Notes: generated from the letters alone by a model not told the origin. DNA of 18,210 bases from Isosphaeraceae bacterium (GCA_021324445.1 JAJPJC010000335.1:1-18210); one strand, 5' to 3'; positions 4,438 through 16,932 are shown, counted from the stretch's first letter. Made by a program: numbers and translations.

Positions 4438-4754
4438 GGAAGTATCGCGCAGGCGTCTGGCCTACCCTCCTTCATGGCATGTGGTGAACCTCCCAGAGAG
4501 CTTTCACCCGGCAATCCCATTATGCACCGGTCCGGTGCTTGGTACGCATTCCACGACCGGACCTCGGGTCGGAGTGGATTCGCCGACGGGAATCGTCTCT
4601 TGAGATTCGCGCCCCGTCCTTGGAAATCGCGGTGGCGGTGTGCGATGTAATCGGAGACTCGAGGCCCGTGATTGACCTGGCGACGGTCTGGGGCAGGGGC
4701 AACCACATTCAACTCCACTGTGAACGGCTACCCCGGGCCGAGGCCCGGCGGCCC

Positions 4755-4800
4755 AGACCGAAGGGGGCGGCACGATGCCGCCCGGTCTTTCCCCTTCGGG
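4755..4800. other. GC-rich nested stem-loop (possible U-tract-less terminator or structured RNA element)
   Basis: Seen: outer 9-bp stem CCGAAGGGG (4758-4766) / CCCCTTCGG (4791-4799). It encloses an inner hairpin GCGGCA-CGA-TGCCGC (4767-4781). An alternative outer pairing is AGACCG (4755-4760) / CGGTCT (4783-4788). It lies in the 546-bp gap between the stop of the secreted-protein gene (4984) and the GT4 start (4437). No U/A tract flanks it on either strand. Confidence 0.4.
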
Positions 4801-4983
4801 ATTGGCACGGCGGCGGCAAATCGACCCGATCTGTTCTGGTGTCCACTCCACTTTATCTCCCGACCCCGATTTCTCCATTTCACACTGAACCAGCACACGT
4901 TCAGCGCGCTCGAGATGGGGATGAACACCAGCAGCCAGTTCAGCTTCATCGTTGCTCGCGTCCAAACCCCGCGCCGCCTCGCC

Positions 4984-6810
4984 TCACCTGGAGAAGCTCA
5001 GTCCCGGGTCGTCGGGGCCGTCGCCGGCCACCCGGAACGTCATGTGTTCGGCGTCCTTCCAGCTCAGGCGACCGACCAGCGGGGGGCCCTTGTCCTGGAC
5101 CAGAGTCAAGATGCCCGCCCCGTAGGTCGAGGTCCCGGTGAAGTGCTGCGCCTTGCCTTTCTGGTTGACCTGCCAGGTGAACTGGCCCCCGGGCTGGATG
5201 GTCAAGCCGATCTCGGTGTCCGCGGTCGGATGAGCCTTCCAGGTCCCGGCCATCGACGCGCCCTGGGGCGGGGTCGTGTCGACCGGGGCAGGCTCGGGAG
5301 CGGTGGCCGTCGTGGTCTGGTCCTTGGGCACATCGAGCTGGCGGAGCAACTTCGCCGACAGCGTATCGCTGGGCATCAGCGCCACCACCTGCTTGAGCAC
5401 GCTCACGGCCGCATCGATGTAGCCTTCGGTCAGGTAGTGGTAGCTGAGAACGAACCGGGCCGCGGCCGAGTTGGGGTTGGCCGCGCAAGAGTCTTCCAGC
5501 GCGCGGAGCTGCGCGGTGTAGACGTTGACGTCGGGGTAGAGGCTCACCAGCGTCGGCCAGTCCCAGCCGGGTCCGATCGAGAGCACGGCATAAAGGGTTG
5601 CGGCCGCGGCCTCATACTGCTTCAGGGCGAACTGGCAGAGCGCACGGAACTCGTGCAGGGCCGTGTCGTTGGGCAGCTTGGCCAGGGCGTCGTTGGCCTG
5701 CGCCAGGGCCTGCGTGTAGTTGCCTTGCTTGAACGAATCCCGCGCGGCGTCGAATGTGGCGATCGCGGGGTCGGCGACCGCATCGCCCGCGGGCGCAGTG
5801 GTGGTGTCGATCGGCTGCGCGTAGTCGTAGGGCACGGCAGCCGCGGATTGATCGACGAAGGCCACCGGGGCGGCGTAGTAGGGGTTGGAGTACGGCAGGT
5901 AGCCCATCCCATACAGCGCCGACCCGTAGCCCCAGGACGCCAGGCCGTAACCCAGGCCCATCCCCAGGCCCAGGCCCATCCCCCAGCCCCAGCCGCCCCA
6001 GTAGGGTCCACGCCAGGCCCAGGCGGCGTTGTTGTGTCCGTTCCAGTAGCCGTGGACCCAGCCGGCGTGATAGGCCCCGTAGGCGTTGTTCCCGTAGGCG
6101 CGATACCCGGCGGCGCCGCCGCGAGATCCGACGGCCGCTCCCCCGGCACCGACCGCCGCGCGGCCGCGCTCGCCGCCGGCGACGACGCCCCCGGGACCGG
6201 CTGCGAATCCACCGCGCGAGCCCGCGACGGCGGTCCCGCGCGGTCCGGCGGCGGCGGCCACGTTCGAGCGACCACCCACCGCGTTTCCAGCCGGCCCCAC
6301 GGCACCCCCGGCCCGGCCCACGTCCGTGAAGGTCCGCCCACCCGCCGTCGTCACCTGGGCCCCGGCGACCCCGCGACCGGCCATCCCGCCGCCGGGTCCG
6401 ACCACTCCACGCCCCGCGGCGCCGTAATCGATCGTCCCGCCCCGTGCGGTGGTGTCGGAGCCGGTCCGCGCTCCCGTGGCCATGCCGCCGCCGGCGTACG
6501 GGTTATATCCCCGAAACTCGCCACCCCCCCGATCGAACGTCCCGGCCGAGCTGAAGGAGGGCGTCCGGCCGAACGAGGAGGCGCCGCCGTAACCGCCGCG
6601 AAAGCCCTCGGCGCCGCCGGAGCGCATGCCGCCCATCTCGCCCCCGCGGAAGCCGCCCATCTCGCCCCCGCGGAAGCCCCCAGAACCGCCGGCTCGGACG
6701 CCGCCGCCGCCACGGAAGCCGCCTCCGCCAAACCCGCGCGCCAGGGCCGACCCACCGGAGAGAGCCACCGTCAGGCACGTCAAGACAAGGATCGTCCAGT
6801 TGCGAGTCAT
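4984..6810 (-). CDS. secreted protein: signal peptide, ~280-aa Gly/Arg/Ala low-complexity region with FRGG/RGG repeats and a Trp/Tyr/Gly-rich segment, TPR-like helical region, C-terminal beta-rich domain
   Basis: Seen: MTRNWTILVLTCLTVALSGGSALA signal peptide. Repeats GGFRGGEMGGFRGGEMGGMRSGG. The segment YWNGHNNAAWAWRGPYWGGWGWGMGLGLGMGLGYG. A TPR-like region QGNYTQALAQANDALAKLPNDTALHEFRALCQFALKQYEAAAATLYAVLSI...LSYHYLTEGYIDAAVSVLKQVVALMP. A C-terminal domain GTWKAHP...FTWQV...LTLVQDKG. The ATG at 6808-6810 overlaps the TGA of the upstream gene (ATGA). Confidence 0.8.
   Translation of the reverse strand: MTRNWTILVLTCLTVALSGGSALARGFGGGGFRGGGGVRAGGSGGFRGGEMGGFRGGEMGGMRSGGAEGFRGGYGGASSFGRTPSFSSAGTFDRGGGEFRGYNPYAGGGMATGARTGSDTTARGGTIDYGAAGRGVVGPGGGMAGRGVAGAQVTTAGGRTFTDVGRAGGAVGPAGNAVGGRSNVAAAAGPRGTAVAGSRGGFAAGPGGVVAGGERGRAAVGAGGAAVGSRGGAAGYRAYGNNAYGAYHAGWVHGYWNGHNNAAWAWRGPYWGGWGWGMGLGLGMGLGYGLASWGYGSALYGMGYLPYSNPYYAAPVAFVDQSAAAVPYDYAQPIDTTTAPAGDAVADPAIATFDAARDSFKQGNYTQALAQANDALAKLPNDTALHEFRALCQFALKQYEAAAATLYAVLSIGPGWDWPTLVSLYPDVNVYTAQLRALEDSCAANPNSAAARFVLSYHYLTEGYIDAAVSVLKQVVALMPSDTLSAKLLRQLDVPKDQTTTATAPEPAPVDTTPPQGASMAGTWKAHPTADTEIGLTIQPGGQFTWQVNQKGKAQHFTGTSTYGAGILTLVQDKGPPLVGRLSWKDAEHMTFRVAGDGPDDPGLSFSR
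6628..6675 (-). repeat. perfect 24-bp tandem repeat x2 (encodes EMGGFRGG x2) plus a degenerate third copy upstream
   Basis: Seen: GCCGCCCATCTCGCCCCCGCGGAA at 6628-6651 and again at 6652-6675, in frame within the low-complexity region. Confidence 0.7.
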
Positions 6811-7874
6811 CGGGGGCTCCTGGTCGGGTTCGGGGACGTGGAAGGCCCCGCCTGGACTCTCGGCGGAGTTCGCGGCGGGGGCGGGACGCGGACCATGACG
6901 TACGCTTGGGCCCCGGGGATCGAGGCCTCCCCGAGCACGCGGTCGGTCGAGGACCAGCGCACCAGGTCGGATCGCTCCCGGATCAGGATGTTGGTCGACG
7001 AGGCAGCGACCCCCTCCGGTCGGGCGCCGGTGTGCTTGACGAGCCAGCGGTCGCCGTCACGGCTCCAGGTCCCCTCGCCGAAGCCGCCTTCGGAGTCGAA
7101 TTCCCAGGACCGGATCCGCCGGGCCAGCGGGTCCCAGCCGATGCGCTGGGAGACCGTCATCACCGGCTTGCCCTGCTGCCTGACCGTGAACGAGCGGATG
7201 AGGAAATTCCCGTCCTCCGACCAGCGGCAATTGACCCGGACCTGCGAATCGGAGGCCTCGTCGACCCAGTCGCCGATCATCCATTCGAGATCCTTGAGCC
7301 GATCGTGGGGCCGGACCAGCGGGTCGGCCTCCTCGCGGACGCTGGAAATGAGCCAGCGCCCGCCGCGCTTGACATACAAAACTGTGTACGGCTGGGCCAG
7401 GCGCGTATCCTGGGTCGGCCTGACGATCGTGCGGCCCTCCTCCTGGGCGACATCCGGGCTGAGGAACCGGATCGATCCGATCTCCAGCGCGATCGTCACC
7501 CCCGGGCTGGCGGCGAAGGTGTCGGCGAGACGGCGTTCGATCTGGTCACGTCCCTGAAGATGGTCGCCTTCGGCCTCGACGGCCTCGGCATCCTCGGTGA
7601 AGAGGGCCGCCAGGGCCTTGCTGTCGCCCTGGTTATAGGCGCGGACAAAGGCCTCATCGACGGCGCGGACGGCCTGCTCGTCCGCGGATTGGCCTGGACG
7701 GCTCGCCGCGGTTCCGTCCCCTCTGGTGGACGGGTTCGCCCGCGGCGGCTCCGGCTGGGACGAGACCTCGGCCCCGACCTGGGAGCGGGCCAGGCCGGGC
7801 CCGAGGATGGTCCCGAGCAGGGCGATGACCGCCAGCGGACCGACCACGCGGAATGTCCTGTTTTGAGAGATCAT
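6807..7874 (-). CDS. exported protein with two tandem NTF2-like (SnoaL/DUF4440-like) domains
   Basis: Seen: N-terminal hydrophobic segment RVVGPLAVIALLGTILGPGLA. Domain 1 is VRAVDEAFVRAYNQGDSKALAALFTEDAEAV...GRDQIERRLADTF...RGGRWLI. Domain 2 is LEWMIGDWVDE...VRVNCRWSEDGNFLIRSF...DGDRWLV. Both follow the NTF2-like pattern of an N-terminal helix with Asp/Glu, an aromatic cluster and a C-terminal W-L-hydrophobic sheet. A Pro-rich tail follows. The stop overlaps the downstream start. Confidence 0.75.
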   Translation of the reverse strand: MISQNRTFRVVGPLAVIALLGTILGPGLARSQVGAEVSSQPEPPRANPSTRGDGTAASRPGQSADEQAVRAVDEAFVRAYNQGDSKALAALFTEDAEAVEAEGDHLQGRDQIERRLADTFAASPGVTIALEIGSIRFLSPDVAQEEGRTIVRPTQDTRLAQPYTVLYVKRGGRWLISSVREEADPLVRPHDRLKDLEWMIGDWVDEASDSQVRVNCRWSEDGNFLIRSFTVRQQGKPVMTVSQRIGWDPLARRIRSWEFDSEGGFGEGTWSRDGDRWLVKHTGARPEGVAASSTNILIRERSDLVRWSSTDRVLGEASIPGAQAYVMVRVPPPPRTPPRVQAGPSTSPNPTRSPR

Positions 7875-8140: not shown

Positions 8141-8776
8141 TCAAGGTCCAGGAGCGGCAGCGCCGGCTGAGGGAATGGCCGCGACGGGGCGGTCGCCCGC
8201 TGGAGCGGAGGACGGGTCCTTGGGGCGTGCTTCCAGGAGCATCCGCAGGTAAGACCGGGGCTCCACCTCGGTCAAGCCCAGCTCGGCGGCCAGGGCGAGC
8301 ACGGCGGCTTGCGCCGCGGGGAGCTGGGACTCATCGGCCACCAGGATCTCGATCTCGGCGAAATCGCCCAGGTGCTCGGCGCGGTCGAGCGACACCTCGA
8401 GCCCGTGCGGTGGATCCACCAGGTGGAAGGTCGTCCGTGTCTTGCGGACCGTGGCGACCGGGCGGAATCCCAGGATCTCGAAGAGCCGCGCGAGCTGCGC
8501 AAAGGCGTCGGCGCCCGGGGCGAGTGGGAGCTCGATCTCGGTGCGGGTCTTGGTCGGACCCTGCCGCCGGGGACCCTTGTAGGTGATCCGGTTCTCATCA
8601 CCAATCCGCCGCAGCCGCATCGCCTCATGGGTCGCGGCGAAATCGCGGGAGGGATGGTTCAGATAAACGTCTTCCTGGATGACCGGCGCCGCGGCGGCCG
8701 CACCCCGCTCGAGGAGCCGCCGCCGGAGCTGGTCGTGATCGACCGATCGGTACTTGACCTCCACTTCGAAACTCAT
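8141..8776 (-). CDS. CYTH-domain protein (triphosphate tunnel metalloenzyme / class IV adenylyl cyclase-like)
   Basis: Seen: MSFEVEVKYR (the E-x-E-x-K CYTH signature at the N-terminus), followed by QEDVYL...MRLRRIGDENRITYKGP...TRTEIELP...FHLV...EVSLD...GDFAEIE. The start is chosen at the internal ATG 8774-8776, which gives the canonical CYTH N-terminus; the track ORF extends to 8878. Confidence 0.7.
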   Translation of the reverse strand: MSFEVEVKYRSVDHDQLRRRLLERGAAAAAPVIQEDVYLNHPSRDFAATHEAMRLRRIGDENRITYKGPRRQGPTKTRTEIELPLAPGADAFAQLARLFEILGFRPVATVRKTRTTFHLVDPPHGLEVSLDRAEHLGDFAEIEILVADESQLPAAQAAVLALAAELGLTEVEPRSYLRMLLEARPKDPSSAPAGDRPVAAIPSAGAAAPGP

Positions 8777-8997
8777 GGACCCAGCGTAGGCCGCAGGTCC
8801 GGACCGGTCAACCGCCAGTGCCGCGCGCGCGGCCGGATTGTCCCGAATATTCCCTCCGGGCGACGAATAACCGTCCACTCCGGGGATTGAACCACTCCGG
8901 TGACCCGGCTGATCGGGTAATCTTTGCGGGACCGAGGCCCCGGGCGGGATGGGCCGTCCGGAGCGGTCATCGCGTTCGTTCGCAGAGGAGCGTCGCT

Positions 8998-11277
8998 GTG
9001 GGGAGCCTGTTCTGGGTGTTGGCCATCGTCGCCATCGTGGTGATCGGATGTGAGCTCACCGGCTTGCGCTACATCGCCAACAACCGAGTCGGAATCGTCG
9101 AGAAGCTCTGGTCCGTGAAAGGGTCGGTGCCCGAGGGGCGGATCATCGCGCTGGAAGGTGAGGCCGGCTTCCAGGCCGAGGTGCTCCGCGGTGGCATGCA
9201 CCTCGGCTACTGGCGATGGCAATACCGCATCCATCGCGTCCCCCTGGTCACCATCTCCCAGGGCAAGATCGGTTACGTCTATGCCCGCGACGGCGAAGCC
9301 CTCCAACCCAGCCAAACCCTGGGGCAGGTGATTGCTTGCAATCACTTCCAGGATGCACGGCGGTTCCTGGGGGGCGTGGGGGTGAGTCCCGAACAGGAGC
9401 CGCTGGTCGGGCAGCGGGGCCGCCAGCGGGCGATCCTGCGTGAGGGCGTTTACGCCATCAACCTGGCGCTGTTCATGGTGATCACCGAGGAGGCGGTGTA
9501 TCGGCTGGAGACCGGCGGCTCGAAGGAGCTCAAGGCGCTGGTCAACTGGCAAAACGAGCTGGGCCAGATCGAAGGGTTCAGCCCGGTGATCATCGGTGGG
9601 CCGGTCGAGGCGCCGGACCCACTCAATCCTGGCAAGACCACCCTGGTCGACAGCACGGGAATCGTGACGGTGCATGACGGTCCGTCGCTGCCGCCGGGCG
9701 AAATCATCGCGCCGGCGGTGGGGTGCGACCGCAACGACAAGGACTTCCACAACAACTATCAGGATCCCGAGGCGTTTCTCCGCGCCGGGGGGCGCCGGGG
9801 CTTGCAGTACGTCCCGCTGACCGACGGCACCTACTTCATCAACCGTTGGTTCGCCACCATCGAGTCGATCCCCAAAACGATCGTACCGATCGGTTACGTT
9901 GGCGTGGTGGTCAGCTACTATGGCCGGAGTGGGCAGGACATCTCGGGGCAGGCGTTCCGTCACGGCGAGCGAGTCGGGGAGGGGGAGCGCGGCGTCCAGG
10001 AGAAGCCGCTGGGCCCGGGCAAGTATGCGTTCAATACCTACGCCGGGAACATCATCCTGGTCCCCACCACCAACTTTGTCCTGCACTGGGTGACCGGGCG
10101 CACCGAGGCGCATCGCTACGACGAGAGCCTCCGCTCGATCGACCTGGTGACCAAGGATGCCTACGAGCCGACCCTGCCCCTGTCGGTCGTCGTCCATATC
10201 GACTATCAGAAGGCGCCCAACGTCATCCAGCGGTTCGGCGACGTCAAGAAGCTGATCACCCAGACGCTCGACCCGATGCTCAGCGCCTACTTCCGTGACG
10301 TGGCGCACAAGCGGACGATGCTGGCGTTGCTCCAGGACCGCGATTCGATCCAGCACGAGGCGACCGAGGAACTCGGCCGCAAGTTCCACATCTTTGACAT
10401 CGAGTGCGTCGACGTCCTGATCGGCAAGCCCGACACCGAATCGGCCGGCGGCAAGATCGAGACCCTGCTCGAGCAGTTGCGGCTGCGGCAACTGTCGTTG
10501 GAGCAGGTCGAGACCTACTCGAAACAGGTCACGGCCGCCCAGACGCTGCGCACACTCAATGAGGCCCAGGCCCAGGCGCAGATGCAAACCCAACTGTCGA
10601 ACTCGATGGTGCAGATCCGCATCGCCGAGAACGAGGCGGAGGCGCAGCTCGCCCGGGCGCGCAAGCAGGCCGAGCAGGTCGTTGTCACGGCCGAGGCCGA
10701 GAGCCAGCAGCGCATCCTGGCCGGTCGCGGCGAGGGCGCGCGGGTGCTCCAGGAGGGCCTGGCCGAAGCGTCGGTGTTGCTCCGGAAGATCAACTCGTTC
10801 TCCGATCCGCGGCTCTATGCGCTCTCGGTCGTGGCCGCCAACCTGGCCAAGTGCACACAGCCGCTGGTGCCCGAGCGCGTCTTCATCGGCGGTGTCGGGG
10901 GCGGCAACGGCGCCCCGGGTGAGAACCCGCTCACCGCCGGGGGCGGCGCGGCGGCCGGGAGCGGGCTCTTCGGCCTGCTGCTGAGCCTGCTGGTCGCCGA
11001 GAAATCGGGCTTCCAGCTCGCCGAGCACCCCGCGGAATCGGAGCTCCGCGCCTTCACCGAGAAGGTCACGCGCCAGGCGATGGAGTCAATCCAGCAGTCG
11101 CTGGGACCGGTCAAACGCCCCAAGAATCCTCGGCTTCAACCGCAGGCGATGGACTCGATCCAGCAGGTCGTGGGCGAGGAGGGTTTCGCGCCGGAGCCGC
11201 GCGGCGACGCCGCGCCGCCTCCGACCACCACGGCCGCGCGCCTCGACGGCCTCGATGGCGGTCGCGCCGCCACCTGA
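8998..11277 (+). CDS. SPFH/band-7 (flotillin-like) membrane protein with long Ala/Gln/Glu coiled-coil C-terminal region
   Basis: Seen: GTG start at 8998 with SD AGAGGAG about 8 nt upstream. N-terminal TM helix LFWVLAIVAIVVIGC. A band-7-like core (GVVVSYYGRSG...KYAFNTYAGNIILVPTTNF...LPLSVVVHIDYQ). A flotillin-type EA/Q-rich coiled coil (QAQAQMQTQLSNSMVQIRIAENEAEAQLARARKQAEQVVVTAEAESQQRILAGRGEGARVL). The Gly/Ala-rich tail precedes a final segment ESELRAFTEKVTRQAMESIQQSLGPVKRPKNPRLQPQAMDSIQQVVGEEGFAPEPRGDAAPPPTTTAARLDGLDGGRAAT. The antisense ORF 8773..11028 is rejected. Confidence 0.65.
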   Translation: MGSLFWVLAIVAIVVIGCELTGLRYIANNRVGIVEKLWSVKGSVPEGRIIALEGEAGFQAEVLRGGMHLGYWRWQYRIHRVPLVTISQGKIGYVYARDGEALQPSQTLGQVIACNHFQDARRFLGGVGVSPEQEPLVGQRGRQRAILREGVYAINLALFMVITEEAVYRLETGGSKELKALVNWQNELGQIEGFSPVIIGGPVEAPDPLNPGKTTLVDSTGIVTVHDGPSLPPGEIIAPAVGCDRNDKDFHNNYQDPEAFLRAGGRRGLQYVPLTDGTYFINRWFATIESIPKTIVPIGYVGVVVSYYGRSGQDISGQAFRHGERVGEGERGVQEKPLGPGKYAFNTYAGNIILVPTTNFVLHWVTGRTEAHRYDESLRSIDLVTKDAYEPTLPLSVVVHIDYQKAPNVIQRFGDVKKLITQTLDPMLSAYFRDVAHKRTMLALLQDRDSIQHEATEELGRKFHIFDIECVDVLIGKPDTESAGGKIETLLEQLRLRQLSLEQVETYSKQVTAAQTLRTLNEAQAQAQMQTQLSNSMVQIRIAENEAEAQLARARKQAEQVVVTAEAESQQRILAGRGEGARVLQEGLAEASVLLRKINSFSDPRLYALSVVAANLAKCTQPLVPERVFIGGVGGGNGAPGENPLTAGGGAAAGSGLFGLLLSLLVAEKSGFQLAEHPAESELRAFTEKVTRQAMESIQQSLGPVKRPKNPRLQPQAMDSIQQVVGEEGFAPEPRGDAAPPPTTTAARLDGLDGGRAAT

Positions 11278-11372: not shown

Positions 11373-11440
11373 AAAGGGAGGACCCCGACCGGATACCGAT
11401 TAAATTCCTTGATATATTTTTCTTACTGATTCTCTCGGGC

Positions 11441-11469
11441 TTGATCCCGCGTCGATCCTCGGCTAGAAT
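11441..11469 (+). promoter_or_regulatory. sigma70-like promoter for rpsR: TTGATC -N17- TAGAAT
   Basis: Seen: -35 TTGATC at 11441-11446, a 17-bp spacer, and -10 TAGAAT at 11464-11469. It sits in the only AT-rich patch (11395-11440) upstream of rpsR and predicts a ~95-nt 5' leader. Confidence 0.5.
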
Positions 11470-11565
11470 CTGGGTTTCGCGTCCGGGCCGCCGGGAGTGG
11501 CCAGGCCCAGTGACGCACCCTCCCTGAGTGATCATCCAGCGCAACTGACTGAGGTAAACGGGTTT

Positions 11566-11808
11566 ATGCCGAGGAAGAAGTTCGGACGCAACCGCAAGAA
11601 TCGTTGCCGTTTCTGCACACCCGAGGGTTGCCCTCGGCCGGCCTACGTCGACTACAAGGACGTCGGCCTGCTCAAGAAGCTCTGCACCAATCAGAACAAG
11701 GTCTTTTCCCGCAAGCGCAGCGGCAGTTGCGCGGCCTTTCAGCGCGCCGCCAGCGCAGCGGTCAAGCGCGCCCGCTTCATGGCGTTGCTGCCGTATGTCG
11801 GGGAATGA
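11566..11808 (+). CDS. rpsR: 30S ribosomal protein S18
   Basis: Seen: MPRKKFGRNRKNRCRFC...VDYKDVGLLKKLCTNQNKVFSRKRSGSCAAFQRAASAAVKRARFMALLPY matches the S18 family signature (CRFC, IDYKD-x-LL, KRAR-x-ALLPY). SD GAGGT lies 8 nt upstream of the ATG. It is monocistronic here, with no rpsF or rplI in the window. Confidence 0.9.
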   Translation: MPRKKFGRNRKNRCRFCTPEGCPRPAYVDYKDVGLLKKLCTNQNKVFSRKRSGSCAAFQRAASAAVKRARFMALLPYVGE

Positions 11809-11831
11809 GCCGCCGGTAGCCGGATCTCCCC

Positions 11832-13436
11832 CTACGGGCCGGGCACGGTCCGGATTGAGCCGCCCCGACCCGGCGGGTTCACCCTGGGCTGCGGCTCGCG
11901 GTGCCGGGCGCCGCCACGACCGTCCTTGAGGAAGGAAAGGAGCTGGGCCTCGAGAGTGGCGTACGGCTGACCCAGGCGATCCTGGAGCGATCGGCCGGTC
12001 GTGCGCTTGATCCGCCCGCGGTAGGCGTCGCGGACATAGTCGAGGAAGCCGTCGCGATAGGTCCCCTGGCGGGCCTGCATCAAGAAGACGGTCAGGGCCA
12101 TGCCTTCCTGGTAACGGAGGTAAATGCCGGAATCGTCGCGCTTGAAGGCGTCCTCGCCGAGGGCGACGAACTGGGCCAGCGGGATCGCCCGGCCCTGGTC
12201 CACCAGGGCTTTGATCGCTTCGGCGATCCGGGGCCCGACCAGGCCCCCGACCTCGATCGAGCCGTCGGGCTGCGGCTCGACCGTCTCGAAGTAGGTGCCC
12301 AGCCCCTCGAAGACCCAGTAGTTGCCGTAGTTCTTGGTGTACTGATTGGGCCCAGCCATCTCGAAGAGGAGCTGATGCGAGACTTCGTGGTAGAGATTGG
12401 CCGTGACCGGGAGCTGCCCTCCGGGGTCGTGGAAGAAGTAGGCCGGTGCCCGGCCGCCCCGTCCGGGCCTGGGGGGGTCGTAAAAGCCGAGGCTTTGCGC
12501 GATCTCGGCCCCGTACCTGGGACTGAGGTGTTCCGCGTATTCGTCCTTGGACCCGAAATAGTAAACCAGATGGGGCTTCGACGTGGGCTCGCCCACCAGG
12601 GCCGGATCGCGGAACCGGCGGGCTAAGGGGAGGTTGTCACCGAGCAGATCCGCCATCAGGGCCGAGAACAGGTCGTGGAAGGCTTCCAGTCGGCGGCCGA
12701 AGCTGATCGCTTCGGCCAGGGGAAGATTGGTCTGGACCTCGAAGTGCTCGGTGAAGATCTGCCAGGGGGGTTTCCAACCGGCTCGGAGGCGGTCGGCATC
12801 CACGGCCGCCAGCCATCGCACCTTCTGGCCCCGGACCTGCGGCGCGGGCAGCTCGCCGCGATCCAGGTGTGGCAGCCAGTCGGACTTCACCCAGCCGAAG
12901 ACCGGATGATCGACCAACCCGTTCTGAAGTTGTCCCACGGCAAAGGGCCTGGCCCAGCCGCCGGCATGCGGCACGTACCCCAGCAGCCGGCGCGCCTCGG
13001 GGTGATCGGGCTGCCGCTCCAGGACCCCGCGCAGGCACCGGTCGGCCAGCGCGTACCGCGGCGGTTGCGCGTGGGCGGCCCGCTGGGCCAGCGCGAACAG
13101 CTCGGACGCAAACCGCCCCTGGATCGCCGCGAGCTGGGACCGCCACGCCGCCACTTCCCCCTTGGGACGGGGCCCGACCACATCCGGCAAGGGGACGAAC
13201 TGCGTCGGTCCATCCGGGGCCACCTCCCGGGGAAGCCGCCCGCGCACCTCCCGGGCCGCCTGCACATTCCCCGTCCCGGCCAGCCGGTCGGCCAGCTCGC
13301 TCAAGTCCGCCGCCTCGCTCGCCAGGATCGCCCGTCGGGAGGTTTCGAGCTCACGCGCAACCGCTTCGCCCGTCAGCGGCCGCGGAACCTGACCCACAAC
13401 CCCCAGCAACCCGACGAGACACCATGAGCAGGACAT
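11832..13436 (-). CDS. secreted HExxH zinc-metallopeptidase-like protein (gluzincin-like; resembles Planctomycete DUF1570 family)
   Basis: Seen: signal peptide MSCSWCLVGLLGVVGQVP. The motif HEVSH with Glu residues 9 and 28 residues downstream (LLFEMAG...WVFEGLGTYFE). SD AAGGGAG lies 6 nt upstream of ATG 13436. The track ORF extends to 13532, but the signal peptide and SD favour 13436. Confidence 0.75.
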   Translation of the reverse strand: MSCSWCLVGLLGVVGQVPRPLTGEAVARELETSRRAILASEAADLSELADRLAGTGNVQAAREVRGRLPREVAPDGPTQFVPLPDVVGPRPKGEVAAWRSQLAAIQGRFASELFALAQRAAHAQPPRYALADRCLRGVLERQPDHPEARRLLGYVPHAGGWARPFAVGQLQNGLVDHPVFGWVKSDWLPHLDRGELPAPQVRGQKVRWLAAVDADRLRAGWKPPWQIFTEHFEVQTNLPLAEAISFGRRLEAFHDLFSALMADLLGDNLPLARRFRDPALVGEPTSKPHLVYYFGSKDEYAEHLSPRYGAEIAQSLGFYDPPRPGRGGRAPAYFFHDPGGQLPVTANLYHEVSHQLLFEMAGPNQYTKNYGNYWVFEGLGTYFETVEPQPDGSIEVGGLVGPRIAEAIKALVDQGRAIPLAQFVALGEDAFKRDDSGIYLRYQEGMALTVFLMQARQGTYRDGFLDYVRDAYRGRIKRTTGRSLQDRLGQPYATLEAQLLSFLKDGRGGARHREPQPRVNPPGRGGSIRTVPGP

Positions 13437-14323: not shown

Positions 14324-15070
14324 TCAGCCCGGTCCACGACGGCCGCCGGGACCTCCGGGCCCAGGCGGTCCGCCCCCCATGGCCGGCGCGGTGCCTGGGG
14401 CGGCGCCGCCGGCGCCCTCGACGGCTCCCTCCTCGGGCAGCAAGTGTTCGTCGCCATACGGCCGGGCCTCGAAATGATTGAGGAGCCACTCCGCGCGCGG
14501 ATCGAAGACCTGCACCGGCTCCCGATTGTTTCCCCAAACCCCGTAGGTCCCGAACGGATCGCGCGCTCCCCTGCCATACTGAGCGAACACATCCCCCGTC
14601 TGGTACTGGAAGAAGCCCAGCCACTGATGATCGAGCCCCAGTCCGAAGGGTGGCTTCGTCTCGTGATCGATCACCGTAAAGATCTTCTTGTGCACCGGCG
14701 CCGTGTGGAAGGCCAGGATGACGATCGCCATGGTCACCAGCGCCCCCCCCAGGCCGAAGATCAGCCGGCCAAGATGGAAGATCGGGGTGGGGAATCGCAC
14801 CATGGCCGGGGCGATCGTCTCGGTCGTCATCCGCAGGAGCACCACTGAGACGCAGAACAGTCCCAGCAGGCAGAGCGTGTCCGAAAAACCCCAGGGGATG
14901 CCGGTCCGATCGAGGAGCTGAGCCAGCGGCTCGTAGAAGTTGAAGGCGATCATCCCGCCGAACAGGACGTTGAAAAACATCAAGGCCGCGCCCCAGAGCC
15001 CCTCGCTGATCAGGGCATACCACAAGCCGAGGATCAGCACCACAATGATCAGGTTGATGACCGCATACAT
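14324..15070 (-). CDS. CvpA-family-like polytopic membrane protein with Gly/Pro-rich C-terminal tail
   Basis: Seen: MYAVINLIIVVLILGLWYALISEGLWGAALMFFNVLFGGMIAFNF..., then 3 further hydrophobic helices. The first-helix pattern (I-D/N-hhhhhhh...G-h-x-E) resembles CvpA/colicin V production protein. SD GAGGGA lies 7 nt upstream. The assignment is from memory of the family and is moderately confident. Confidence 0.5.
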   Translation of the reverse strand: MYAVINLIIVVLILGLWYALISEGLWGAALMFFNVLFGGMIAFNFYEPLAQLLDRTGIPWGFSDTLCLLGLFCVSVVLLRMTTETIAPAMVRFPTPIFHLGRLIFGLGGALVTMAIVILAFHTAPVHKKIFTVIDHETKPPFGLGLDHQWLGFFQYQTGDVFAQYGRGARDPFGTYGVWGNNREPVQVFDPRAEWLLNHFEARPYGDEHLLPEEGAVEGAGGAAPGTAPAMGGGPPGPGGPGGRRGPG

Positions 15071-15174
15071 GAGACTTCCCTCAAAAGACGAAATCGGGCG
15101 ATCGACGGCGGAGGGTCGGGAGACGGGCCGGCCGCACCGGCATCCCGGAGTCGGCGCGGCCCTCGGCTCCGGCC

Positions 15175-16932
15175 TCATTTCACGACGCGCAGCAGCTCCT
15201 CGATCGAGGTTCGGCCCTGGATCACCTGACGCAGGCCGTCTTCCTGGAGGTAGATCATCCCATTCTTGCGAGCCTCGGCCTTGATCTTGTTGATCGACGG
15301 ATTCTCGCGGATCATGTCCCGCAGCGCCTCGGTGATGATCAGGAGCTCGTAGATTCCCGTCCGGCCGAAATAGCCGGTGCCGCCGCATTGCTGGCAGACC
15401 TGTTCCGGGTTCTCGGGACGGCGGTAGAAGACGTCCACCTTCTCGGCGGGCAGGTTGGCCTTCTTGAGGAATTCGGGCTTGGGCTTGTACGGCTCCTTGC
15501 AGGATTCGCAGAGGATGCGGACCAGCCGCTGGCCCAGGACCGCCGAGAGGGCTGAGGCGATCATGAACGGCTCGACACCCAGATCGAGCAGGCGGAACAG
15601 CGCCGTCACGGCGTCATTGGAGTGTACCGTCGAAAAGACCATGTGGCCGGTGTTGGCCGCCTGGCAGGCGATCGAGGCGGTTTCCTGGTCGCGGATCTCG
15701 CCGATCATGATCACGTCGGGGTCTTGACGCAGGATCGACCGCAAGGCGGTCGCGAAGGTCTGCCCGGCCTTGGTGTTGACCTCCATCTGGGTGACGTTGT
15801 CCAGGTGGTACTCGATCGGGTCTTCCACGGTGATGATGTTCTTCTGGTAGCGATCGATCTCGCGGAGCGAGGCATACAGCGTGGTCGACTTGCCCGCCCC
15901 GGTCGGGCCGCAGCAGAGGAACATCCCGTGCGGCTGGGTCACCAGGTTGCGCACCTGCTCGACCAGCTTGGGCCGCATGCCCAGCTCCTCGAGCTTGGTG
16001 ATCGAGGCGCTGTTGTCCAGGATGCGCATCACCAGCTTCTCGCCGGCCTTGGATCCCGAGGTGGCCACGCGGAAGTCCAGGTCCCGGGCCTGGAGCTTGG
16101 CGCCGAAGGAGCCGTCCTGGGGCTTCCGCTTCTCGGAGATGTCCATGGCCGCGAGGACCTTGAAGACGTTGACCACCGCATCGCCGGTCGGCCGGTCGAA
16201 CGGCTCGGCGGCGTGGAGGATGCCGTCGATCCGATACCGCACCGAGAGCTGCTCGGTCGACGGCTCCAGGTGGATGTCGGTCGCCCGGCGGAGCACGGCG
16301 TCATAGACCAGCTCCTTGGCCGCCATGTAGGACCGCGATTCCTCGGCCCGGCGCACCCGATCGGGATCCTCCTTGGCCGAACCCTGACTCTTGCCGACGA
16401 AGGTGATCGGCGGACCGGCCCGGTCCACCGGCGTGACGTCGCGGTTGAACAGCGGCCGCATCCCCAGCTTGAACAACAGGTCGTTGGCGACCTCGCCCAG
16501 GTGGTAGGGCGTCATCACCTTCTGGTCGTCGGGCACCATCTGGTTGCGGTTGTAGATGTAAATGAACAGCGGGATGAAATAGGCCAGGAGCAACAGCGCC
16601 AGGCCGATCAGGAAGAACCGGCCCCAGGGCAGCGCCAGCATCACGACCAGCCCGAGGACGCCGGAGAAGAACACGACGCTATTCCACAGGCCGAAGCGCG
16701 GGTTGTTCAGCTCCTGGGTGTCGTGCTCGACCCAGTCGGTGGTCCACACCCAGAGCAGGTAGATCAGCACGACCGGGATGAACTTGAAGAGGTTCAGATA
16801 GAGTCCCGGCCCCCGCACGACGGTTTGCGACTGCGCGAGCAGGACCGGGAGAACCTCGGCGGCTTCGGCGGCGCCGGCACCGCCGAGGAGCAGGATCAGC
16901 GTGGTCGCGAGCAGCAGGGACGGGCGAATCAT
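15175..16932 (-). CDS. GspE/PilB-family secretion ATPase with N-terminal 4-helix transmembrane domain replacing the N1 domain
   Basis: Seen: the hydrophobic segments are LLLATTLILLLGGAGAA, FIPVVLIYLLWVWTTDWV, VVFFSGVLGLVVMLALPW and FFLIGLALLLLAYFIPLFIYIY. An N2-like domain follows (ATDIHLEP...VRYRIDGIL...KPQDGSF). Walker A is GPTGAGKST. Other family motifs are ITVEDPIEY (Asp box), DVIMIGEIRD (Walker B) and TGHMVFSTVHSN (His box). The tetracysteine is CESC...CQQCGG. The whole ORF is continuous with uniform GC3. SD GAAAGG lies upstream. Confidence 0.85.
   Translation of the reverse strand: MIRPSLLLATTLILLLGGAGAAEAAEVLPVLLAQSQTVVRGPGLYLNLFKFIPVVLIYLLWVWTTDWVEHDTQELNNPRFGLWNSVVFFSGVLGLVVMLALPWGRFFLIGLALLLLAYFIPLFIYIYNRNQMVPDDQKVMTPYHLGEVANDLLFKLGMRPLFNRDVTPVDRAGPPITFVGKSQGSAKEDPDRVRRAEESRSYMAAKELVYDAVLRRATDIHLEPSTEQLSVRYRIDGILHAAEPFDRPTGDAVVNVFKVLAAMDISEKRKPQDGSFGAKLQARDLDFRVATSGSKAGEKLVMRILDNSASITKLEELGMRPKLVEQVRNLVTQPHGMFLCCGPTGAGKSTTLYASLREIDRYQKNIITVEDPIEYHLDNVTQMEVNTKAGQTFATALRSILRQDPDVIMIGEIRDQETASIACQAANTGHMVFSTVHSNDAVTALFRLLDLGVEPFMIASALSAVLGQRLVRILCESCKEPYKPKPEFLKKANLPAEKVDVFYRRPENPEQVCQQCGGTGYFGRTGIYELLIITEALRDMIRENPSINKIKAEARKNGMIYLQEDGLRQVIQGRTSIEELLRVVK

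Follow-up and report, generated by a model that had tools for sequence, protein, structure and literature searches.

Proteins of the SgcJ/EcaC family (TIGR02246; Pfam DUF4440/SnoaL) have, to our knowledge, no established activity. Here we describe two overlapping genes, called A and B, at positions 4984 to 7874 of an 18,210-nt stretch of DNA from an Isosphaeraceae bacterium (GC about 67%). This whole stretch is referred to as the window, and all positions follow its numbering. Protein A contains a domain of the SgcJ/EcaC kind and differs from that family in that the domain is predicted to be exported, shares its chain with an unrelated all-beta domain and a poly-Pro tail, and is obligatorily paired with a tetratricopeptide repeat (TPR) protein, the product of gene B. 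As judged by comparison with related loci, the pair is a real, conserved and clade-restricted two-gene module that has been duplicated and inherited together.

Like Hip, RPAP3, STUB1/CHIP, SGT and MamA (TPR_19/TPR_16), protein B has three to four TPRs and a capping helix (Foldseek E about 1e-4, 15 to 21% identity). The likeness is confined to the generic repeats: those proteins are without the invariant PGWDW loop, the N-terminal aromatic cap and the C-terminal beta domain of B, and the TPR domain of B, in contrast to those modules, is predicted to be periplasmic. The N-terminal tail of B is similar to the RGG/GAR (Gly/Arg-rich) and aromatic-Gly domains of FUS and hnRNP proteins in its Gly spacers, its Arg and aromatic stickers, the near-exclusion of Lys, the varying number of repeats and its predicted disorder. 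Unlike the FUS/hnRNP RGG regions, it is located behind a conserved Sec signal peptide, which would place it outside the cytoplasm, with no RNA context, and the resemblance is one of composition, not of homology. The aromatic block of the tail resembles the YG domain of PEX13 and the cohesive FG domains of nucleoporins in having aromatics spaced by two to four small uncharged residues (PMC9795577). In those domains the composition is conserved while the position and number of the aromatics are free (PMC9795577), whereas the positions of the B block are conserved like those of the folded TPR domain (0.80) and the structure model has good confidence over part of the block; compared with PEX13 YG, the block also has no membrane-anchoring helix. 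Both the RGG and the PEX13 YG/FG-nucleoporin likenesses are analogies, not memberships.

The ECF56 (extracytoplasmic function) sigma factor SigG1, with its SnoaL_2 extension, and RsfG (PMC7730460; PDB 7qh3) offer another case of an association between an NTF2/SnoaL-type domain and an RsfG-like sequence. The match of the second domain of A is marginal, and the proteins described here differ in being exported, as predicted, and in having no sigma factor. TIGR03066, a paralogous domain family of Gemmata obscuriglobus, is matched by the C-terminal domains of divergent B relatives, which are homologous to that of the window protein, although the window's own domain gives no match. We know of no function for TIGR03066. 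Sequence comparison assigns each part to a kind already known: an NTF2 domain like that of SgcJ, TPRs and, tentatively, a TIGR03066-like domain. A literature search found no paper on the A-B family or on TIGR03066, and the clade-restricted gene-pair family is hidden in databases by generic names ('tetratricopeptide repeat protein', 'SgcJ/EcaC family oxidoreductase'). Exported bacterial proteins with Arg/aromatic/Gly low-complexity tails of the eukaryotic style have hardly been described, and here such a tail is under clear selection.

The features of the two genes are listed below. A slash marks a predicted cleavage site, GC3 is the GC content at third codon positions, KD19 is the 19-residue Kyte-Doolittle hydropathy, and pLDDT is the predicted local distance difference test of the AlphaFold2 models.

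6807 to 7874, minus strand: gene A, 355 aa, predicted exported partner with an NTF2 domain plus a beta domain; stop codon 6807 to 6809; GC3 0.87
7788 to 7874, minus strand: predicted signal peptide of A, residues 1-29 (...GPGLA/RSQ); KD19 maximum 2.04 at residues 10-28
7332 to 7685, minus strand: A domain 1, NTF2-like (SgcJ/DUF4440), residues 64-181
6885 to 7310, minus strand: A domain 2, all-beta, residues 189-330; 11 strands and two short helices, pLDDT >90
6810 to 6884, minus strand: Pro-rich C-terminal tail of A, residues 331-355, following V-R-V; its last codons hold the Shine-Dalgarno sequence of gene B
6817 to 6821, minus strand: Shine-Dalgarno sequence AGGAG of gene B, within the last codons of gene A, with a 6-nt spacer to the ATG; read from the sequence
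6807 to 6810, minus strand: ATGA stop/start overlap, in which the TGA of gene A and the ATG of gene B share bases
4984 to 6810, minus strand: gene B, 608 aa, predicted exported TPR protein with a Gly/Arg/aromatic tail; stop codon 4984 to 4986; GC3 0.87
6739 to 6810, minus strand: predicted Sec-type signal peptide of B, residues 1-24 (MTRNWTILVLTCLTVALSGGSALA/RGF; ALA/RGFGGGG); KD19 1.86, A-x-A site
6481 to 6738, minus strand: FRGG/MRGG/YGG low-complexity segment, residues 25-110; G 50% in residues 25-80, pLDDT <50
6631 to 6654 and 6655 to 6678, minus strand: perfect 24-bp tandem duplication, GFRGGEMG twice, residues 45-60 (Tandem Repeats Finder: period 24, 96% matches)
6103 to 6480, minus strand: degenerate 16-18-aa repeats (approximately G-P-x-G-x-A-V-x-G-x-R), residues 111-236, six to eight copies
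5872 to 6102, minus strand: aromatic-Gly block, residues 237-313 (YHAGWVHGYWNGH...GMGLGLGMGLGYGL...YGMGYLPYSNPYY), start of the family-wide homologous core
5785 to 5871, minus strand: linker with the invariant PYDYxQPI motif, residues 314-342; Y328, Y330 and I334 invariant, Q332 and P333 at least 90% conserved
5335 to 5784, minus strand: TPR domain, residues 343-492; nine predicted helices, about four repeats, invariant PGWDW loop, pLDDT 90-98
5257 to 5334, minus strand: Thr/Pro-rich linker, residues 493-518, assigned by composition; pLDDT 57-70
4987 to 5256, minus strand: C-terminal beta domain of eight strands, residues 519-608 (strands 522-607); pLDDT 86-97

A scan covering one genome per species returned 292 relatives, and the best 80 hits, which represent 79 distinct loci, were used for the locus analyses. 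An A homologue adjoins the B homologue in 66 of the 79 loci and lies directly upstream on the same strand in 65; most of the loci without an adjoining A homologue are truncated contigs. Orthologues (about 60% identity) and old paralogues (about 45%) show this adjacency alike, as do tandem pair-pair arrays, and a SnoaL/DUF4440 gene is found upstream even of a B outlier at 33% identity. Pairwise identities of A and of B correlate (r 0.79, Mantel 0/999). Paralogue pairs within a genome are 41 to 48% identical, compared with 81 to 83% for the best match at another locus. Because the identity matrices correlate and the same-genome paralogues are far more diverged, A and B have been duplicated and inherited as a unit.

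The best 80 of the 292 relatives are all labelled Isosphaeraceae/Isosphaerales or, more broadly, as metagenome-assembled genomes (MAGs) at the Planctomycetota level. The genera named among them, Tundrisphaera, Tautonia, Paludisphaera, Aquisphaera and Singulisphaera, all belong to the Isosphaeraceae, and a genome typically carries two to five copies. Among named hosts the module has so far been found only in this family, as far as database sequences indicate. Protein A is a 100% match to P0121 ('SgcJ/EcaC family oxidoreductase [Isosphaeraceae bacterium]'; 1378 homologues), and protein B differs by one residue from P0001 ('tetratricopeptide repeat protein [Isosphaeraceae bacterium]'; 509 homologues). 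Both entries are labelled 'MAG TPA ... [Isosphaeraceae bacterium]'. The single difference is at codon 13 of gene B (6772 to 6774), in the signal peptide, where P0001 has Pro and the window translation has Leu.

No other part of the neighbourhood travels with the pair. The other genes of the window (CYTH, GT4, SPFH, DUF1570, T2SSE and others) were found in 0 of the 79 loci, and de novo clustering of the flanking open reading frames (ORFs) gave no other family in more than 12. Genes for adhesion, secretion, polysaccharide, biosynthesis or transport were likewise not conserved beside the pair at these loci. One further exported protein was noted: locus L002 encodes, a few kb downstream of the pair (11373 to 12533 of that locus, plus strand), a Gly/Trp-rich protein of 386 aa (...AQAQYGGWGGWGGGVGTAQGNMARGAGV...), which is present at 8 loci in total. 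This suggests that Isosphaeraceae carry several secreted Gly/aromatic low-complexity proteins.

Public gene calls that seem to join A and B were considered and rejected. P0099 (944 aa, SnoaL plus TPR) would have been a Rosetta-stone fusion of the two proteins and is a frameshift artefact; at its locus (L014, a MAG assembly) the NTF2 match is split over two reading frames and a proper ATGATG junction lies downstream. P0252, P0334 and P0342 are garbled gene calls. Such frameshifted or fused calls, some with Arg/Pro-rich out-of-frame stretches, create false 'fusion' architectures in databases.

An ATGA overlap by itself is common in bacteria. At this locus it is accompanied by AGGAG placed 6 nt before the ATG of gene B, and it is kept across the orthologue clade, as ATGA in about 27 related loci and as ATGATG in 4 more (about 31 orthologous loci). 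Paralogous loci have spacers of 25 to 70 nt between the A and B homologues instead of an overlap. The preliminary description of this DNA, made from the sequence alone, had placed the overlap at 6807 to 6810, had proposed coupled expression from it, and had named lack of synteny in other genomes as one finding that would speak against the pair. The overlap is where it was described and synteny is extensive. Since the overlap comes with an internal Shine-Dalgarno sequence, orthologue-clade conservation, synteny and co-divergence, the proposed coupled expression of A and B is well backed by the comparative data. No conserved promoter motif was detected upstream of gene A across 20 orthologous loci, and sigma-70 and terminator scans were empty.

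Like the tails of its orthologues, the N-terminal tail of protein B has a highly biased composition. Residues 25-313 contain 34% G, 15% A and 8% R, with 36 aromatics (12.5%) and no Lys. Across 81 orthologues the tail has 35% G, 15% aromatic residues, 7.3% R and 0.08% K, and its median net charge is +13. Its 1593 Arg stand against 17 Lys (94:1), whereas the counts in the folded part are 778 and 797 (about 1:1; K 3.5%). GC content cannot explain this bias, because Arg and Lys are about equal in the folded part of the same proteins. The composition of the orthologue tails is kept while their length varies from 164 to 308 aa. In the AlphaFold2 monomer model, which was built from 89 sequences, pLDDT is below 50 for residues 18-290 and the folded head is confident. 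We therefore describe the tail as a predicted disordered region of the sticker-spacer type, with Gly spacers, Arg and aromatic stickers and almost no Lys.

The three segments of the tail differ in conservation. Residues 25-110 show a gap fraction of 0.23-0.30 among orthologues, with 0 to 8 copies of aromatic-[RH]GG, and the RGGEM unit varies from 0 to 6; this variation in length and repeat number fits the recent perfect duplication in the window. The 16-18-aa repeats that follow have a mean top-residue frequency of 0.65 in orthologues and are absent from paralogues. AlphaFold2 places short hairpins in them at 117-129, 151-162 and 186-195, with low confidence (pLDDT <50). The aromatic-Gly block, with 20 W/Y in 77 residues (mean spacer 2.8), two Arg and no acidic residue, has a mean top-residue frequency of 0.80, equal to that of the TPR domain, and many of its W, Y and G residues are invariant. 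A search of 1.84 billion proteins gave no more than 104 cluster representatives that contain it. Its C-terminal end (residues 291-310) is modelled, unlike the rest of the tail, at pLDDT 73-87, with short helices at 291-301. Divergent members of the B family lose the Gly-rich character. As a transmembrane segment the block was rejected, since its KD19 maximum is 0.74 (family median 0.86, maximum 1.47) and AlphaFold2 gives no long helix, with pLDDT <50 for 249-290.

The paralogue tails are all Gly-rich (16-43% Gly), and their chemistry otherwise differs, being His/Gly-, Asn/Pro-, Phe/Arg- or even Asp-rich. The comparison of copies indicates that the tail chemistry is lineage-specific and fast-evolving and that the head and the partner are the constant features. 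Directly after the signal peptide, paralogue tails (for example at L040, L042, L051 and L065, and in P0405) carry HGGGHGGGG repeats, Asn/Pro-rich stretches or acidic GGDGG stretches; the HGGGHGGGG repeats recall metal-binding His/Gly repeats.

The Gly-rich region is kept in frame. In codon alignments of ten orthologous loci, third positions of the Gly-rich parts change 2 to 2.5 times as often as positions 1 and 2 (0.54-0.56 vs 0.20-0.26), and in residues 25-110 the third position changes at 0.54 per site compared with 0.25-0.26 for the other two. The folded domains of B show the same excess. These substitution patterns indicate purifying selection on the region, which would make it functional and not junk. 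More than 500 homologues share the domain layout of B. Among the top 120, which come from many independent assemblies, complete genomes among them, every full-length homologue keeps an in-frame signal peptide and the Gly-rich region. These data bear on an artefact explanation, in which the Gly-rich part would be a high-GC shadow or misassembly and the real protein would start near residue 236. High-GC genomes do yield long spurious ORFs rich in Gly, Arg, Ala and Pro, one of which lies antisense to genes A and B (961 aa, 4672 to 7557, plus strand; GC3 0.74, Arg/Pro/Gly-rich translation) and is a high-GC shadow ORF, and homology with paralogues begins only at residue 236. The artefact explanation is nevertheless already refuted by the in-frame conservation, by a third-position excess equal to that of the folded domains, and by the Shine-Dalgarno sequence and ATGA at the annotated start. 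Antisense ORFs equivalent to the 961-aa one recur at related loci, from the same high-GC cause.

The signal peptide of B is followed by a junction, ...A[RH]G/FGGGG, that recurs throughout the family. Protein B was also considered as a lipoprotein, and this was rejected because Cys12 is outside any lipobox and is not conserved. At the sequence level the preliminary description of protein B is correct. It had read a signal peptide, about 280 residues dominated by G, R and A, FRGG/RGG repeats encoded by a perfect 24-bp duplication, an aromatic-glycine block, TPR-like helices and a compact C-terminal domain, and each of these was recovered, the signal peptide as a family-conserved prediction. Its likening of the composition to RGG and aromatic domains is borne out by the 'sticker-spacer' grammar, and the assembly error that it raised as a possible objection is not, because close relatives have the region in frame. 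Its proposal that the pair may be a cell-surface matrix, holdfast or condensate-forming module is a conjecture on which our results weigh in neither direction.

Homology across the whole B family is limited to residues 236-608, with the folded head, which comprises an aromatic cap, about four TPRs and a small beta domain of planctomycete type. The TPR domain is matched in Pfam by TPR_19 (40.9 bits, cut-off 25), TPR_16 (39.2, cut-off 32.7) and TPR_14 (27.9, cut-off 23.5). A Foldseek search of the PDB with B gave only generic peptide-binding modules of three to four TPRs (E about 1e-4), including consensus TPRs and MamA. The C-terminal domain of the window protein, modelled at pLDDT of about 90, has no direct match in Pfam or NCBIfam, and TIGR03066 gave no hit at E <= 5. 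The homologue P0403 can be aligned with residues 236-608 of the window protein, C-terminal domain included (E 8e-71), and P0403, P0405 and P0402 score 39.7, 30.8 and 19.4 bits against TIGR03066 (E 4e-10 for P0403, up to 8e-4), below the 93.25-bit cut-off. The domain may thus be called TIGR03066-like by transitive homology, with all direct homologue scores under the cut-off.

Protein A orthologues have classic short signal peptides, for example MKTAVLWTGLMLGGVGLAMA/QD, and in the window protein the signal peptide is followed by a predicted disordered linker of about 30 residues. Domain 1 is matched at residues 65-178 by TIGR02246 (70.8 bits, cut-off 33.95) and DUF4440 (49.6 bits, cut-off 25.2) and has the alpha+beta cone fold. 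Structurally it is closest to SgcJ, to ketosteroid-isomerase-like proteins, to limonene epoxide hydrolase and to designed steroid binders. The 'oxidoreductase' in the name of protein A is annotation only, and an activity cannot be inferred from the sequence. The preliminary description had assigned two tandem NTF2-like folds to this protein, which does not hold: there is one NTF2 (SgcJ-like) domain, and residues 189-330 form an unrelated all-beta domain that hhalign does not relate to domain 1 at the profile level (probability 0.4%). Pfam gave 0 matches with 18 aligned domain 2 sequences, and fold searches with protein A could not isolate domain 2. The match of domain 2 to RsfG (PDB 7qh3) has an E value of 0.0014 with the single sequence and 0.28 with the profile. 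The C-terminus, V-R-V-P-P-x-P, is well conserved, with V326, V328, R329, V330, P331, P332 and P334 each at least 90% conserved in 117 sequences. A possible link to DUF2950/DUF3300, proteobacterial families encoded by adjacent genes and with a Gly/Arg tail in one of them, was dropped; A has only a 45-residue DUF2950 match (E 0.16) and B has no DUF3300 signal.

The explanation that we consider best, and hold tentatively with less than even confidence, is that A and B form an exported 1:1 complex in which the folded head serves for docking and the cationic, multivalent tail engages in self-association or in binding to polyanions of the envelope. The translationally coupled operon would yield two Sec-exported proteins in roughly equal amounts, whose joint site of action would most likely be the periplasm or the cell envelope. 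The TPR head of B would be the docking element, as suggested by its similarity to the peptide-binding modules of Hip, RPAP3, STUB1 and SGT, and candidate ligands are the VRVPPPP tail of A or B's own repeats. Protein A would serve as a stoichiometric holder or ligand-binding subunit. The tail could provide many weak contacts, by self-association of the RGG/aromatic type and/or with anionic envelope polymers, and the complex might form, or become part of, a gel-like layer of the envelope or matrix. Several points weigh against this explanation. The tails of paralogues differ strongly in chemistry, some being Asp-rich, and cationic polyanion binding therefore cannot be a family-wide function. Positional conservation of the aromatic block points to a specific fold or interface, not a fuzzy phase. 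Small hydrophobic ligands are the more frequent binding partners of NTF2 and small beta-barrel folds, and no conserved neighbour indicates a pathway. The disorder of a monomer AlphaFold model does not exclude an ordered oligomer, and we infer localisation, complex formation and self-association alike.

An alternative that we consider unlikely is a periplasmic carrier or sensor of a hydrophobic small molecule or lipid (lipid, hopanoid, carotenoid), in which the NTF2 cone and the beta domains (domain 2 of A and the C-terminal domain of B) would bind the ligand, the TPRs would be an adaptor and the tail a flexible spacer. Domain 1 of A is a bona fide SgcJ/DUF4440-type NTF2 domain whose structural neighbours are ligand-binding or enzyme scaffolds, both proteins have predicted export signals, and tail chemistry is not conserved among paralogues, all of which is consistent with such a role. 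A mere spacer, however, needs neither a strong Arg:Lys bias nor a conserved aromatic block nor purifying selection on the repeats; the neighbourhood shows no conserved genes for biosynthesis or transport, and catalytic residues or a ligand could not be assigned. Less probable again would be a tether or regulator spanning the periplasm in the style of LpoB, TonB or TolA, its head bound to an envelope enzyme or outer-membrane component and its disordered tail bridging the enlarged planctomycetal periplasm. Such an arrangement agrees with the long N-terminal disordered region beside a TPR head, with the range of tail lengths, and with the frequent use of TPR proteins as periplasmic scaffolds (the weak NCBIfam similarities of B to YbgF, PilW and PrsT are generic TPR matches). 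But the tail would have a free N-terminus after signal-peptide cleavage and its far end would be unfixed, there is no lipobox and no membrane anchor (the KD19 of the block being at most 1.47), and envelope-synthesis genes are not conserved at the loci.

It is improbable, in our judgement, that B is a secreted structural fibre or functional amyloid, whose 16-18-aa repeats and (Gly-hydrophobic)n stretch, GMGLGLGMGLGYGL, would form stacked sheets of the cross-beta or silk-like kind while A acts as an anti-aggregation chaperone in transit. The conserved degenerate repeats of the orthologues, the alternating Gly/hydrophobic run, the AlphaFold2 hairpins and the stoichiometric co-translated partner would fit a fibre; the low confidence of those hairpins, the loss of the repeats from paralogues and divergent members, and the lack of any Pfam amyloid or repeat family match argue against it. 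Curli-like systems have nucleator, chaperone and secretion-channel genes beside the subunit, whereas at the 79 loci only the NTF2 partner is conserved and the neighbourhood has no secretion or nucleator genes of the curli, Fap or chaplin type. Finally, the GFGGGG/FRGG repeats and W/Y-Gly block might constitute a cohesive FG/YG-like selective phase outside the bacterial cytoplasm, which the NTF2-fold partner would modulate or traverse by binding Phe/Tyr-Gly motifs. Possible sites would be the enlarged planctomycetal periplasm or envelope pores. This idea, drawn from resemblance of composition and fold only, is highly speculative, and we give it very little credence; if true, it would be a prokaryotic analogue of the FG-nucleoporin/NTF2 or PEX13-YG/PEX5 systems.

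With a co-inherited partner, two to five paralogous copies of different tail chemistries and several culturable hosts, among them Singulisphaera acidiphila, Tautonia plasticadhaerens and Paludisphaera, the pair offers a natural and tractable setting in which to study the role of disordered sticker-spacer sequences in the bacterial envelope and how a partner handles them. If the function is ordinary scaffolding, its value would be mainly in improved annotation.

Outside the pair, searches of the window with Rfam and for tRNAs gave no RNA gene, and PADLOC gave no match to anti-phage defence. Positions 1413 to 2500 have a GC content of 0.57-0.61 compared with about 0.67 elsewhere, contain no ORF with convincing codon-position bias and have no Rfam or tRNA match; this part may be a foreign or non-coding island. 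Under the longest-ORF rule, a CYTH-domain ORF (8141 to 8878, minus strand) and an 819-aa SPFH/Band-7 ORF (8818 to 11277, plus strand) overlap head-to-head by 61 nt, and their true starts probably lie further in. A gene for an ATPase of the type II secretion system/type IV pilus kind (15175 to 16932, minus strand) matches PF00437 with an E value of 2e-119. Its 3' end is overlapped by about 214 nt by a weak CvpA-like ORF (14324 to 15388, minus strand), and the start of this downstream ORF is probably mis-set.

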